From contig CAZETU010000002.1 of NCBI GenBank assembly GCA_964514585.1, positions 139,687 through 203,686 on the forward strand: a stretch of DNA of 64,000 nucleotides. The letters run 5' to 3'. Each line of letters starts with the position of its first letter. The first letter of the stretch is position 1. The notes under the pieces are model-generated. The model worked only from the letters and a program-made list of their open reading frames with translations. It was not told where the DNA came from and searched no databases. Origin of the DNA: Candidatus Woesearchaeota archaeon. Lineage in GTDB: Archaea > Nanobdellota > Nanobdellia > Pacearchaeales > GW2011-AR1. Position numbers and translations under genes: made by a program. Shown here one piece after another: positions 13,375 through 60,505 of the stretch.

Positions 13375-13629
13375 TTATGCAATATATATGTTGTGATATA
13401 GTATATGCGAGTATATAGGTTCTTTGAAATAAAAAATGTATGTTAAGTATATAGTGTAATATAGTATATTGGAGTATATAGGTTTGGGCAGAAAAAAAGG
13501 ACGGCTGCCTGACGGGGCGACATAGCTACTTTTGATGTCGCTTCCGGTAATGAACTTGATGTCTGTTGCGGTTGCGGTTGATGTTAGTGATGCGATGACG
13601 ATGGCTAGAATGATTGTAAGGTGTTTCAT
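13375..13629 (-). CDS. Small putative secreted peptide; the ORF runs on into the terminal motif
   Basis: SD gaggag; signal-like MKHLTIILAIVIASLTSTATA; the C-terminal half is only a translation of the repeat. Confidence 0.5.
   Translation of the reverse strand: MKHLTIILAIVIASLTSTATATDIKFITGSDIKSSYVAPSGSRPFFLPKPIYSNILYYTIYLTYIFYFKEPIYSHILYHNIYIA
13385..13498. repeat. Two tandem copies of a ~50-bp TATA-rich island-terminal motif
   Basis: tatatgttgtgatatagtatatgcgagtatataggttctttgaaataaaaaa and tatatagtgtaatatagtatattggagtatataggtttgggcagaaaaaaa; recurs at 54380-54492 and 57544-57595. Confidence 0.85.
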
Positions 13630-13662
13630 GGTTTTCTCCTCTTCGAGTTTCGGACTTTTCGT

Positions 13663-13746
13663 TTACCAGGCAAACATACATATGATTGCCCAGATGGTTA
13701 TTACGGTAATAATTGCTATCCTGCAAGTTTCCTTCTTGTGATTCAT
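13663..13746 (-). CDS. 27-aa single-TM peptide MNHKKETCRIAIITVITIWAIICMFAW
   Basis: Read manually; purine-rich aagaggg upstream, one hydrophobic helix. Confidence 0.45.
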   Translation of the reverse strand: MNHKKETCRIAIITVITIWAIICMFAW

Positions 13747-13918
13747 TTTGCCCTCTTGCAAATTTTTTTGTGGGGTTGATAACGGCACATTACGACTTAC
13801 CATTATATGGTATTAATGATAAATTGAAACATGTCGTTATGTGGGCTTGTCAATAAGGTAAGGCCCGCGAGCGGTGTTAGTGATGATTCGCTCGCGGGCC
13901 TGATGTTGTGGGGGTGGT

Positions 13919-14272
13919 TTAGACTGTGACTGGTTTGCGACGGCGAGACTGGGTCGGTTCTCTGAGGACCGTTATCTTAACGCCACGTTCCTTCTGGACG
14001 CTTCTGATTTGCCCGAGGGTTTTGCCGGCTCGGAAGTATGGGCCGTATATCTGGAGCAACTCTGTTGTAGCCGATACGGGTGGTTCATGTTTGGCTTCTG
14101 AGTTGTGATCTGTGGCCTGGACGACGACTGAGCAGTCTTCCCATGCTCTGAAAATGGGCATGTGCTCGACCTCCGGGTGGGTGGCTACTCGTTTTTTCAG
14201 GCATTCCAAATCTGTACTCACAATGTGTATGTTCCCGCTTCTTGCTACGAATATTTCTTTGATCGTTTCCAA
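13919..14272 (-). CDS. Hypothetical protein (TTG start, or frameshifted from ATG 14300)
   Basis: 117-aa ORF; SD aggag before the TTG. Confidence 0.55.
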   Translation of the reverse strand: METIKEIFVARSGNIHIVSTDLECLKKRVATHPEVEHMPIFRAWEDCSVVVQATDHNSEAKHEPPVSATTELLQIYGPYFRAGKTLGQIRSVQKERGVKITVLREPTQSRRRKPVTV

Positions 14273-14643
14273 TTTTATGCTCCTGACAATCCGTTAACAT
14301 TTCTCCTCCTCAACGTTTCATCTCAACGCAACACTTTTCTCAGAAACCTCCTTTCTGGCTATATTGCCGTTAGCGCTTGTGGGCCTTTCCACCTTTTATT
14401 TCTTAAGTCTCTTACCCACCAGCTTGCCTTCCTATTTTTCTTTTTGGGTCGCCACCTTCTTCTTGTTCCTATTCTTTCCAGTGGCAACAACAACCCATGC
14501 TCCGACTCCTTACCTTTCATCACTCCATTCCTCCGATGTACTTCCTTTTCTTCTTTGAATCTTTTGAAAGCCCATGAGCGTGATATGAGTAGCCTCATGG
14601 GCTCATAGTGTTCTGGAGCTACTCTTGTCCTTCCTTTGCTATG

Positions 14644-14898
14644 CTACGCTGCCCGTGTTGCTCGTAAGGAAGCTGCCCTTCTTCGACAAGGTTCTTTCCT
14701 TTCCACCTCCCCTTTTCTGGTAATTTTTGGGGCAGTGTTATTTCTTCTCCTTGCCTTCAGAACTTCAATGAGTGGCGAGTTGCATGTTTTGCATCTGGTT
14801 GTTCTCGCCCTGTGTTCTCTTGTCCCGATGGGGCAATTTCCCTTTTCGTTCGAGCATTCTTTCAGCATAACTAGCGTCCTTTCGCATTCCGTTTCCAT
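14644..14898 (-). CDS. Small basic Cys-rich protein
   Basis: CSNEKGNC...CKTC and an Arg/Lys-rich tail. Confidence 0.45.
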   Translation of the reverse strand: METECERTLVMLKECSNEKGNCPIGTREHRARTTRCKTCNSPLIEVLKARRRNNTAPKITRKGEVERKEPCRRRAASLRATRAA

Positions 14899-14979
14899 TG
14901 CGAGTTTTTTACGCTTTCTCTAGTGCAATCTAGCACTCTGTAGTGATACTCTCCTTTCTGTGCTCATTAATATGGCCGT

Positions 14980-57943: not shown

Positions 57944-58555
57944 CTACCAGCAGGGATTGCACGGGGCTGGTGGGCACGGTGGGCACGGATTGATCGGACA
58001 GGCTGCTATCGCGCTCGCGCTTTGGCAAATTTCGATGTTCACGGAGCTCGAAGTAACGCCTGGTGCACATGGACCCGTGGCTCCCATTGTCGAAGCGGCG
58101 ACTGTGTTACTGCTTGATGTCATCGTCGTCGGCGTGATAGTCTGAGACGTCTGATTGGCGATACCTGAGTTCTGAGCAAGGACGCTACCTCCTGGGGCAT
58201 TCATTATCAATGTGCCCAAGCCGAGGTTGTTTCCCTGCGCATTGCCGCTTGCATTGGTTACGCCACCTGCCGTTTGACCTCCCGCCAATGTCGCCGATGT
58301 AGTCGCCATTCCAGGGCCGGCCATCGTGATGCCTTCCATGATCATTCCACTGGTCGAGGTCCCGGCCGTACTCACTCCGTCTGTTGAGAACGTTGACCCG
58401 CCGGTTTGACCCACGAGGCTAGCCTGTCGAAATCCGGGTCCCAAATTGATCACACCCAGATCTGCGGAAATGATGTTCCCTTGTCCGGTGTTGACCATCG
58501 CATTGGCGGAACCCACAAGCAATACGGCCATTAACAAAATCGCTACTCTCTTCAT
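57944..58555 (-). CDS. Secreted Gly/Ser/Thr/Asn-rich protein with Cys-Pro tail
   Basis: Signal MKRVAILLMAVLLVGSANA; SD ggag; tail CPINPCPPCPPAPCNPCW. Confidence 0.8.
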   Translation of the reverse strand: MKRVAILLMAVLLVGSANAMVNTGQGNIISADLGVINLGPGFRQASLVGQTGGSTFSTDGVSTAGTSTSGMIMEGITMAGPGMATTSATLAGGQTAGGVTNASGNAQGNNLGLGTLIMNAPGGSVLAQNSGIANQTSQTITPTTMTSSSNTVAASTMGATGPCAPGVTSSSVNIEICQSASAIAACPINPCPPCPPAPCNPCW

Positions 58556-58709
58556 TTCAGTCTCTCCTTGGTTTCCCCCCAAAGACTCCATTCAAACTCT
58601 CCTTGTCCATTACAGACAAACTGTGTTGCATTGGTTGACGGGTTTTCGATTACCTCCTTTCTCCCTCTATTCAATTTGAATAGATCCATCAATGGATGTT
58701 AGATTGTAA

Positions 58710-59993
58710 TTATCGGAATTGTAGGCCTATCTTCCGAAAGTGTTCTCTTGCTGCTTGTTGCGTGCTGATTGCTTTCGCGGCTTTGCTTACTTCCCCTTTC
58801 TTTTGGGTTTTAATTTGTTTAGCCGCTTTCTGGGTTTCAACTTGATTCTCCGCTTTGCCTTGGCGGGGAGGAGTTCCCTGGATTTGGTATTGTCGGATTT
58901 GTTCCTCTGTCTGAAGTGGAACCTCTACCCCATCGAATGCTCCTTTAGGAGGGAGGTTTTGTCCCGGTTGGGCCAAGCTGATTTGATTGACGAAATTGAC
59001 GACATCACGATCCATTTTGGTTGTATAGGGATCGTAGACGTAGCCTCTGACGGCTGTAGCCAATCTGCTCTCAACTCTTGACTCGGCCTTGACTTTTCCT
59101 GCGCCGAAGGTGGCGCCCACGTTTTTGTCGTTGCTTGCGACGCCGAGACCGAGGTAACTCGATTCACTCTTTGCGACGGGGCTGGGCTCTATGTATATCA
59201 TGATTAGGTCCACCCCGCTGTTGTAGAGGGCGTTCATGCAGATGCCCCTAACCATCGCTTCGTCTATCAGTACTCCCTTGTAAGTTGGGGGAGGGTCGAT
59301 AGAATACCTGCCTCCGGAAGTGTATCCTGCATAGAGCAAGGATTTTTCCACAAATTTCGGATTGAGGTTTGAGTAGATGACGATTATCTCTTTCGGTCTT
59401 CCGTCTCCGTTCTTTGGGCGGCCGTTAGAGGCTAGGAGTGTGTTAGAAAAAGGGAAGCCCCTTGCTCTTAGTCCCCATTTACCCGTGAGAACGCCTCCCA
59501 CAACTTCCCCGATGACACTTGGGATTCCTTTGCATCCCGTTTCCTTTGTGGCCTTTTTCATCAAGGCTCTGTCTTGGCTGGTCCATCGGATTGCTCCGAT
59601 CCCATATTCGTTTGTCATGGGGCCGAATACGCTTGGCCCTTTTGGATATGCTACGGGCATGGGTGGAATCCAATATGGGTTTCCTGGTGGTGAGGTTCTT
59701 GTTTCTGGGGCTTGAAACTCTTGGACGAGTTTGACGTCCTGTTGTGGGGTTACGACCGTTATTGGATTGGAGATTGCAGCTCCTCCTTCTCCAATAGCTG
59801 CTGCTATGGGGTTTGCTGTCGTTGTGACCACCGGGTTTGCTGTGGCGTTGCTTTCGCTTGAGCCTGGGCCTCTGACGATACTTGTTAGTTCCTGACTACT
59901 TGTTGTGCTGCTGCTGGAGGTACTTTGGCCCAGTGTTGTTCCAGCAACGACAAATAAAGTAATCAACGCGATTGTGACTGTGCGTTCTTTCAT
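58710..59993 (-). CDS. Secreted hypothetical protein
   Basis: Signal MKERTVTIALITLFVVAGTTLG, Ser/Thr/Pro linker, globular core, basic tail; SD agggagga. Confidence 0.8.
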   Translation of the reverse strand: MKERTVTIALITLFVVAGTTLGQSTSSSSTTSSQELTSIVRGPGSSESNATANPVVTTTANPIAAAIGEGGAAISNPITVVTPQQDVKLVQEFQAPETRTSPPGNPYWIPPMPVAYPKGPSVFGPMTNEYGIGAIRWTSQDRALMKKATKETGCKGIPSVIGEVVGGVLTGKWGLRARGFPFSNTLLASNGRPKNGDGRPKEIIVIYSNLNPKFVEKSLLYAGYTSGGRYSIDPPPTYKGVLIDEAMVRGICMNALYNSGVDLIMIYIEPSPVAKSESSYLGLGVASNDKNVGATFGAGKVKAESRVESRLATAVRGYVYDPYTTKMDRDVVNFVNQISLAQPGQNLPPKGAFDGVEVPLQTEEQIRQYQIQGTPPRQGKAENQVETQKAAKQIKTQKKGEVSKAAKAISTQQAAREHFRKIGLQFR

Positions 59994-60207
59994 GGTATAT
60001 TCCTCCCTGCTTCCATGAATACCCCCTGTTTGTAGGAACGCACCCTCCTCTTGCTTTGTTTCCTCCTTTCTTGATTTCTGGTTTCGTTGGTTCGTTCGCT
60101 TATTTGTTTGCCTGTTATTGGTAGAAGGCACAGGCATCTCTGTGAAATGTCTGCGCCCTCATTAGGGGGGGAGAGAAATATGAAACCTTACTTGGTTTCA
60201 GAATTCG

Positions 60208-60312
60208 AATGAAGGCGGTGCGATCCGTGCGGCAGAGATATCCCTTCTTCTTAAATCGCGTACGAGTCGGAGCATCCTTTCTCACTTCTAACTCCCGTCC
60301 GCCTTCATCCCC
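60208..60312 (-). ncRNA. ~105-nt three-way-junction motif, copy 2
   Basis: Closing atgaaggcgg/ccgccttcat; both ends match the 54529-54635 copy. Confidence 0.6.
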
Positions 60313-60395
60313 CAATGCTTCTGGGTTTTGTATCATATCTAACCTTGTTTGGTTAGATTGATGTTAGAGGTCATGGTCTTAACTAAATGATTGCG

Positions 60396-60505
60396 TCTTT
60401 GGAAGTACCTATTTCGCAAAGTTTTTCTTTCTTTGCTAGGTATTCCGGGGTCCACTGTGTCTTGAGGGTTGTTAATTCGGACAGTTTGGCGTGTTCGAAT
60501 GTTGT
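60396..60505 (-). promoter_or_regulatory. Conserved island-upstream two-hairpin element, copy 3
   Basis: tctttggaagtacctatttcgcaaagttttt...taggtattccggggtccactgtgtcttgagggttgttaattcgg. Confidence 0.7.

Follow-up and report, generated by a model that had tools for sequence, protein, structure and literature searches.

Three GC-rich islands in an archaeal chromosome are cassettes of a real, undescribed system, in which a shared head and a shared tail border one-stranded cargo served, as a candidate machine, by a HerA/VirB4-like ATPase. They lie in a 64,000-nucleotide stretch (hereafter, the window) of Candidatus Woesearchaeota archaeon contig CAZETU010000002.1, positions 139,687 to 203,686, from a 1.04-Mb genome (18 contigs) with relatives among the Pacearchaeota / Nanoarchaeota. 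Islands 1–3 are here called cassettes 1–3; islands 2 and 3 are satellites, that is, stand-alone head–cargo–tail units. Counting delivery as RNA, as protein or as DNA together, it is likely that the cargo acts on a bacterial cell. Such host-directed cassettes have not been described for any archaeon, and we found no published description of the locus in the literature searched, whose coverage was incomplete.

A conserved locus of partner, ATPase, head, cargo and tail

At island 1, a gene for a 137-amino-acid (aa) coiled-coil partner is followed by the ATPase gene, the head, one-stranded cargo, a terminator and the tail (Table 1). This site is conserved: at genus level partner, ATPase, head, cargo, tail and ppsA follow one another in the same order, and the architecture is kept over ~70 loci. 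A single copy of the ATPase is present in 32/48 genomes of the genus and 44/255 of the family. Outside the genus it was found in all sampled genomes of three further genera, where the cassette occupies a different fixed site and converges on a gene that homology and gene order identify as that of RNA polymerase subunit D. A model of the head matched 25 of the 48 genus genomes, all of them ATPase-positive, and none of the 16 ATPase-negative ones; it was trained on ATPase-adjacent heads, and related genomes in these counts are not independent. The tail pattern was present in 21 of 36 genomes of the genus and in none of 24 from other families, with a few matches attributable to AT-rich chance. 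Two relatives (G003 and G031) also have stand-alone units like islands 2 and 3, and three more (G012, G061 and G063) have stand-alone heads. Between genomes of the genus, cargo ranged from ~0.6 to >24 kb and from 28 to 54% GC, with almost no genes in common; the widest GC range recorded was 24 to 54%.

The first-pass annotation had proposed bordered modules handled by one trans-acting machine. Head and tail indeed co-occur in fixed head-to-tail orientation across the genus, and this, the recurrence of the locus and its co-distribution with the ATPase, an enzyme which that annotation did not name, support the proposal.

Some relatives have a small antisense winged-helix-like open reading frame (ORF) between the ATPase/cassette and ppsA (L036:7015-7296, L044:8322-8588). 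G031 has this ORF and no cargo at that site, and no homologue was found in G000. An opposite-strand ORF within another cassette (L125:10971-11411) is IS200 transposase-like by eye.

Table 1. Coordinates of the system's features in the window
Feature	Position	Strand	Remarks
137-aa coiled-coil partner gene	24126..24539	-	Directly upstream of ATPase gene
626-aa HerA/VirB4/TrwB-superfamily ATPase	22229..24109	-	C-terminal winged helix; Pfam DUF87; candidate motor
Head 1	22014..22227	-	Starts at ATPase stop codon; fold z -4.5
Cassette 1 cargo	13500..21990	-	~15 ORFs led by Shine-Dalgarno sites (635, 216, 152 aa), five tRNA-like genes, strong hairpins
635-aa membrane protein, cassette 1	19669..21576	-	dN/dS ~0.12
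133-aa lipobox protein, cassette 1	15910-16311	-	
tRNA-like gene, cassette 1	19251-19322	-	
tRNA-like gene, cassette 1	18480-18555	-	
tRNA-like gene, cassette 1	18062-18138	-	Abnormal anticodon loop
tRNA-like gene, cassette 1	16465-16548	-	Abnormal anticodon loop
tRNA-like gene, cassette 1	15236-15311	-	Abnormal anticodon loop
Cassette 1 tandem tails	13385..13500	-	Copies at 13385 and 13448; U-tract, then 33-bp dyad; upstream of ppsA
Archaeal BRE-TATA promoter, cassette 2	57238..57252	-	Predicted start ~57216
Head 2	57014..57215	-	Fold z -3.2
Cassette 2 cargo	54495..57010	-	~14% coding; rest non-coding, mostly hairpin repeats
120-aa secreted protein, cassette 2	54923-55285	-	
Cassette 2 tandem tails	54379..54492	-	Copies at 54379 and 54440
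Archaeal BRE-TATA promoter, cassette 3	60575..60588	-	Predicted start ~60553
Head 3	60353..60552	-	Head-model match
Cassette 3 cargo	57600..60350	-	Signal-peptide proteins of 427 aa (58710-59993) and 203 aa (57944-58555)
Cassette 3 tail (single)	57544..57596	-	Copy at 57544

The islands are chromosomal, single-copy and compositionally distinct

GC content was 0.44–0.52 in the islands (13.5–22.0, 54.5–57.0 and 57.6–60.35 kb) against ~0.38, and GC at third codon positions was 0.54 in cargo versus 0.34 in host lagging-strand genes, in line with the GC-richness noted at first reading. The companion suggestion that the islands lack the host's G+T strand bias held less well. Coding GC skew was -0.04 in cargo and -0.10 in host lagging-strand genes, mostly the ordinary effect of lagging-strand genes, and the excess of T over A on the plus strand persists in the islands. 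The composition is anomalous, and its real anomaly is the GC excess, not strand bias.

The islands are real, chromosomal and single-copy. All three heads and all five tails lie inside the window, and the rest of the 1.04-Mb genome has neither. Island 1 is neither chimeric nor amplified, because it and its flanks were 100% identical in the 5 assemblies compared (its 635-aa gene was present on 13 contigs) and were covered by a single 17-kb contig at a flat depth of 17.2, from a run that may be the source sample. The contigs of four runs held no head-to-tail joint or circle; contigs drop rare forms.

As first noted, no transposase or integrase was recognised inside the islands; the genome has six tyrosine recombinases, none on the window's contig. 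The earlier option of a non-autonomous mobile element found no support, with sites fixed, no target duplication seen and no circle in the contigs, and no polymerase, HUH enzyme or recombinase of matching distribution came to light, polymerase and HUH enzymes not having been searched for directly. A 3.5-kb contig of GC 0.52 (C15; L055, G000:C15), considered as a fourth island, is a DDE transposase and ExeA-like ATPase element with neither head nor tail, and is possibly mis-binned.

The head resembles the start of an archaeal transcript and the tail its end

The same hairpin element heads each island, as the first-pass annotation had seen (E 5e-21 to 6e-27 against the head model, these heads being among its 18 rows). 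Within the head, TCATATT and an A/C-rich tract precede hairpin A, which shows compensatory changes at 7/8 pairs, and GAAATACC then opens hairpin B. The motif GAAATAC(C/T) was 44-fold enriched and orientation-biased within the first 600 nucleotides (nt) in 59/71 cassettes, including those of tail-less genera. Seven stand-alone heads (window cassettes 2 and 3, and five in relatives) have an archaeal B recognition element and TATA box (BRE-TATA) ~30 nt upstream, the spacing of the host's leaderless promoters, so that the head has the look of an archaeal transcript's 5′ end. An 18-nt head pattern allowing 2 mismatches gave matches at chance level only. In a cassette of >24 kb, intergenic units of an A/C tract, a hairpin and GAAAGGAA are repeated before tandem paralogues (L138:4700-6000 and 12900-14900).

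The U-run and TATA-rich block described at the end of each island are likewise present, as tandem pairs at islands 1 and 2. The 33-bp tail dyad reads TATATA-N4-AATATA-C-TATATT-N4-TATATA, and most relatives' tails have a hairpin and U-tract, then this dyad, frequently in tandem. Two other roles for the tail were rejected. It is not the ppsA promoter, as ppsA has its own TATA box at ~13347-13354 and the tails of G031 come after cargo genes, not ppsA; nor is it a sigma-70 promoter of a circularised cassette, as the -35 hexamer is not conserved among ~40 tail-like matches and a resemblance to TTGCCA-17-TATACT is not conserved either.

Cargo carries bacterial signals and bacteria-only proteins

The credible cargo lies entirely on the minus strand, led by Shine-Dalgarno (SD) sites, as first reported. 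AAAGGA preceded 36% of cargo genes versus 4% of operon-internal host genes under one start-picking rule, and the AAA ahead of GGAG fits the bacterial CUCCUUU tail better than the archaeon's own CCUCCUA(U/A). A lipobox was present in 17/225 cargo proteins, including the window's 133-aa protein, versus 1/910 host proteins, and Lgt was not found in the 5 genomes searched. Internal promoters were not enriched: a TATA box preceded 9/257 cargo genes versus 299/741 host genes, and sigma-70 promoters showed no excess in cargo spacers (19 vs 15±5). Among the proteins encoded in relatives' cassettes are a sigma-70 factor (its contig, 648 kb long, is archaeal), an alpha subunit C-terminal domain (alpha-CTD) protein of RNA polymerase, CsrA and acyl carrier protein (ACP), and also FHA, GspF-N, pilins, PEP-CTERM, LysM and an outer-membrane barrel. 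Each cassette keeps to one SD style, and styles vary by lineage, some lineages being AT-rich and SD-less; together, style and protein type may be reminiscent of Phycisphaerae and Bacteroidota.

In the window, the 635-aa membrane protein has a 55% identical homologue in another tail-ended cassette and ~40% identical homologues in chromosomes of candidate phyla radiation (CPR) bacteria; the presence of this cargo family there hints at a gene pool shared among episymbionts. The 427/203-aa pair of cassette 3 recurs at ~60% identity in a GC-rich patch on another Pacearchaeota-like contig from a JGI sample (L245:3589-7168), in which no head or tail was detectable. Cassette 2 contains four GGAGACGA hairpins, two of them inside a 120-nt direct repeat. 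The odd tRNAs of the first-pass annotation were found in island 1 as five tRNA-like genes, of which three have an abnormal anticodon loop, and the host's own tRNA-Cys and tRNA-Thr(CGT) are elsewhere; tRNAs were the only Rfam matches. Such genes recur in many relatives' cassettes, and those of L040, L063, L218 and L130 have stop-codon anticodons (TCA, CTA, TTA) or 2-/4-base anticodon calls. Island 1 folds more stably than shuffled sequence (mean z -1.4; host genes +0.2 to +0.6). For two cargo proteins, the ESM Atlas gave no match above 0.83.

Cargo orthologues are under purifying selection (dN/dS ~0.12-0.25 in closer pairs) and evolve faster than the ATPase, and tandem paralogue arrays in the cassettes arose in place. 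These data bear on the doubtful possibility of a gene-capture or landing platform, in which the ATPase would import or insert DNA from hosts or phages downstream of a promoter, as integrons do, with cargo that would serve the archaeon or be transient. Such a platform would suit the near-complete turnover of content and the wide range of GC between genomes, and the archaeal HerA/VirB4-like protein CedB does serve DNA import. However, no close donor is apparent (homologues of cargo are few or none among 5.8 billion proteins), orthologues have near-saturated dS (synonymous divergence) at dN/dS ~0.2, cargo is strictly one-stranded, and cargo spacers share no attC-like motif, no attC covariance model having been run. 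We also know of no use for sigma-70 or alpha-CTD in an archaeon.

Prophage remnants, contamination or mis-assembly are a very improbable source of the islands. Small ORFs, odd tRNAs and SD-led membrane proteins are like the early regions of large phages, and 21 PHROG families were matched; yet the 145 cargo proteins sampled include no capsid, terminase, integrase or polymerase, no virion, packaging, integration or replication gene was found among the larger cargo proteins of the window, and the same sites are occupied genus-wide, with several identical assemblies and flat depth.

The ATPase is a candidate motor that lacks the nuclease of its relatives

GMSGSGKT is invariant and DEAH nearly invariant among 73 aligned ATPase rows, as expected of the P-loop fold. 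The predicted model (pLDDT 88) matched HerA, DndH and VirB4 in Foldseek (E 1e-14 to 1e-11) and has no membrane anchor; that of a relative has the DndH/VirB4/HerA/TrwB fold (Z 35-26), a MarR-type winged helix-turn-helix and an AF1548-like domain. An ORF of partner-like size precedes the ATPase gene in 72/75 loci, with homology detectable in 36, and in an archaeal integrative element, too, a partner homologue (E 2e-7) stands ahead of the ATPase gene. There are 462 distant ATPase relatives at E<1e-30; those aligned have, beyond the winged helix, an extra C-terminal nuclease-like domain (D...ExETGKS, PD-(D/E)xK-like). The Pacearchaeota ATPase keeps the winged helix and lacks this domain. The one distant relative with DNA context is in an archaeal integrative element with an integrase, Cdc6, a second DUF87 ATPase and the same partner gene. 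A widespread archaeal element module pairs the coiled-coil partner with an ATPase–winged helix–nuclease fusion (L290:9583-12043), a candidate relaxase-like protein of archaeal integrative elements. In G217, six small SD-led genes are inserted between the partner gene and the ATPase (L218:6945-9980).

The neighbours of the ATPase are coiled-coil, methyltransferase and ribosomal protein genes, with no NurA, Sir2, DUF4297 or type IV secretion genes beside it. TraG/VirB4 was rejected as a part of the system, being patchy and independent of the 32 ATPase-positive genus genomes; two TraG/VirB4 genes and an integrase on contig C3 (G000:C3:1-5000, C3:113000-125000) suggest integrated conjugative elements. 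Also rejected was an Amidase_3 peptidoglycan amidase gene 3 kb from island 2 (50914-51621, E 1.5e-36; 27/301 genomes of the order), whose distribution does not track the ATPase.

An ATPase of this kind could act as a coupling protein in a T-DNA-like transfer, with head-to-tail DNA (a single strand or a circle) entering the host and being transcribed there, a possibility that we consider improbable. Its closest folds are DNA translocases and coupling proteins, its distant relatives carry the nuclease-like domain (one of them within the integrative element), hairpin A pairs better on the non-coding strand, and the tail dyad would suit a DNA-binding protein. Against this, the Pacearchaeota enzyme lacks that domain, the cargo has no sigma-70 promoter excess and the promoter-like look of the tail is not conserved, archaeal promoters at satellite heads would be unnecessary, and depth was flat with no junction in contigs, which drop rare forms.

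Elsewhere in the window, an intron-containing tRNA-Tyr (61548-61695) is followed by a 397-aa ORF and a DNA methylase (region 61028-64000), whose homologues in G025 adjoin a VirB4-like gene. The repeats at 40718-40792 and 49780-49854 are an ordinary P-loop repeat common to two paralogous GTPase genes.

A proposed model of expression in a bacterial host

We tentatively propose that each cassette is transcribed by the archaeon into a single RNA, which it pumps into a bacterial host to be translated there. An archaeal promoter in front, bacterial translation and processing signals and no internal promoters are most simply explained by archaeal synthesis of an RNA that a bacterium then reads, as are a loading-type leader motif, a nuclease-less motor and no DNA amplification. 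Archaeal RNA polymerase would make one long RNA per cassette, by read-through from the ATPase operon at island 1 and from their own BRE-TATA at the satellites. The ATPase, which may derive from an integrative-element protein that lost its nuclease, would bind the repeated, oriented GAAAUACC motif and the hairpins of the leader, probably via its winged helix, and pump the RNA across a contact site into the bacterium. There, host ribosomes would translate it, and the host's Lgt, BAM, exosortase and RNA polymerase core would process or use the products, which would remodel the host envelope and gene expression, akin to phage early genes. The tRNA-like and hairpin units may stabilise, punctuate or decoy, and the tail would serve as a reinforced terminator of hairpin, U-tract and protein-bound dyad. 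Pacearchaeota using the system would attach to bacteria.

Several observations weigh against this model. The archaeon's 16S rRNA keeps its anti-SD and GGAG precedes 30% of the genes inside its operons, which would allow it to translate the cargo on its own. Terminator-like hairpins stand in ~10% of cargo spacers, and sense-strand A-C mismatches in hairpin A are G-U pairs on the opposite strand, so that either strand may be the one that folds. The window's own cargo has no Pfam match, the bacteria-only domains being known from relatives' cassettes, and no channel is co-distributed: TraG/VirB4 occurs in 13/48 genus genomes, ATPase-negative ones included (the genomes are incomplete). To our knowledge, HerA/VirB4/TrwB enzymes are DNA or protein motors, not RNA motors. 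Neither CsrA nor PEP-CTERM, both considered, is proof of host expression, as in other Pacearchaeota genera CsrA lies within core operons with AAGGAG sites, and Pacearchaeota possess their own sortase. The core operons with CsrA-domain genes include exosome/proteasome and ribosomal protein operons (L270:15769-16104, L274:6325-6672, L276, L277), in 9/16 genomes of one genus.

The cargo may instead form effector operons translated by the archaeon, their proteins being displayed as host mimics or delivered to the host as proteins; we judge this unlikely. Cargo would then have come from bacterial hosts or their phages, keeping the donor's SD style, with head and ATPase for antitermination, regulation or protein export. 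The intact anti-SD and the archaeal promoters at heads would fit, VirB4-type ATPases move proteins, and 58% of cargo proteins versus 22% have a hydrophobic N-terminus. Internal terminator-like hairpins would require antitermination. Both these hairpins and a leader are present, and the leader might conceivably act as in the processive antitermination systems put, nut/N and conAn, where such an element carries polymerase past terminators. Self-translation sits poorly, however, with AT-rich SD-less cassettes and with GAAAGGAA-type sites, which are unlike host usage and retained in every tandem paralogue. Lipoproteins are encoded, yet Lgt was not detected in the five genomes searched; translocation would be needed for each of the cytoplasmic proteins (sigma, alpha-CTD, CsrA and ACP), with no obvious common signal; and cassette 2 is 86% non-coding.

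Returning to RNA made by the archaeon for its host, we slightly favour the broader claim that contains it: capsid-free cross-domain delivery of nucleic acid (mRNA, less likely DNA) through a dedicated ATPase, with the host making the symbiont's effectors. The first-pass annotation had raised, speculatively, T-DNA-like segments for export to or expression in a host cell. Host-cell expression is now the best supported of its options, because of the bacteria-only cargo and signals in relatives; a T-DNA-like border pair is not supported, because the head is unrelated in sequence to the tail and behaves as an archaeal transcript 5′ end.

We know of no cultured host for Pacearchaeota. The locus is sequence evidence for a lineage of 44+ genomes acting on bacterial cells, and it makes the host question testable, the SD style and protein families of each cassette pointing to a host group. 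All cultivated DPANN archaea are described as needing archaeal hosts (PMC11291902), and predation on bacteria has been inferred only, from lytic genes (PMC9723730). If nucleic acid is delivered, the cassettes would also record the host of each lineage. If RNA is what moves, one prokaryote would be delivering programmed mRNA to another of a different domain, and the two-gene motor and 200-nt leader involved are open to testing in vitro.

Comparison with known systems

The system resembles T-DNA, phage host-takeover regions and polydnavirus segments in its working, yet could not be placed in any of them. As in Agrobacterium T-DNA (VirD2/VirD4/VirB), bordered segments bear another domain's expression signals alongside a coupling-protein-like ATPase and host-remodelling cargo, and the translation and export signals of the cargo are of the recipient's, bacterial, type; its promoters are not. 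Unlike T-DNA, the cassettes are chromosomal in an archaeon, their borders are unrelated where those of T-DNA are 25-bp direct repeats, an archaeal promoter starts the unit, the cargo has SD sites and no host promoters, and no VirB channel or relaxase was identified, no genome-wide HUH search having been made.

Phage host-takeover regions (T5 first-step-transfer DNA, the SPO1 module) share the dense, one-stranded, small SD-led genes, the sigma factor, CsrA and tRNAs, and the rapid turnover. The cassettes differ from them in lying in a cellular chromosome, in having no strong sigma-70 early promoters and in that virion, replication and integration genes were not found. Polydnavirus (bracovirus) segments, too, are several chromosomal segments with common border motifs, served in trans, whose fast-evolving, locally duplicated genes are meant for another organism's cells; here, in contrast, no excised circles or amplification appeared in the contigs of four runs, although contigs drop rare forms, there is no capsid, and transfer would run from prokaryote to prokaryote.

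The ATPase has the fold of Sulfolobus HerA (4D2I), DndH (7ES4), VirB4 (4AG5) and TrwB (1E9R), and the placement of its winged helix next to a short, oriented motif is reminiscent of FtsK-gamma and its KOPS sites. At 13-18% identity to the HerA/FtsK/VirB4/TrwB enzymes, and with a coiled-coil partner, it nevertheless forms a separate family, and unlike in HerA-NurA or HerA defence systems, NurA, Sir2 and DUF4297 are not adjacent. Integrative conjugative or mobilisable elements differ from the cassettes, which have a fixed site, dissimilar ends, flat depth and no joint in contigs. With integrons and the archaeal clusters of attC sites lacking integrases (CALINs) the cassettes share a fixed platform, one promoter and variable one-stranded genes; they differ in having no integrase at the site and no shared attC-like spacer, and in units that close with a terminator and a dyad.

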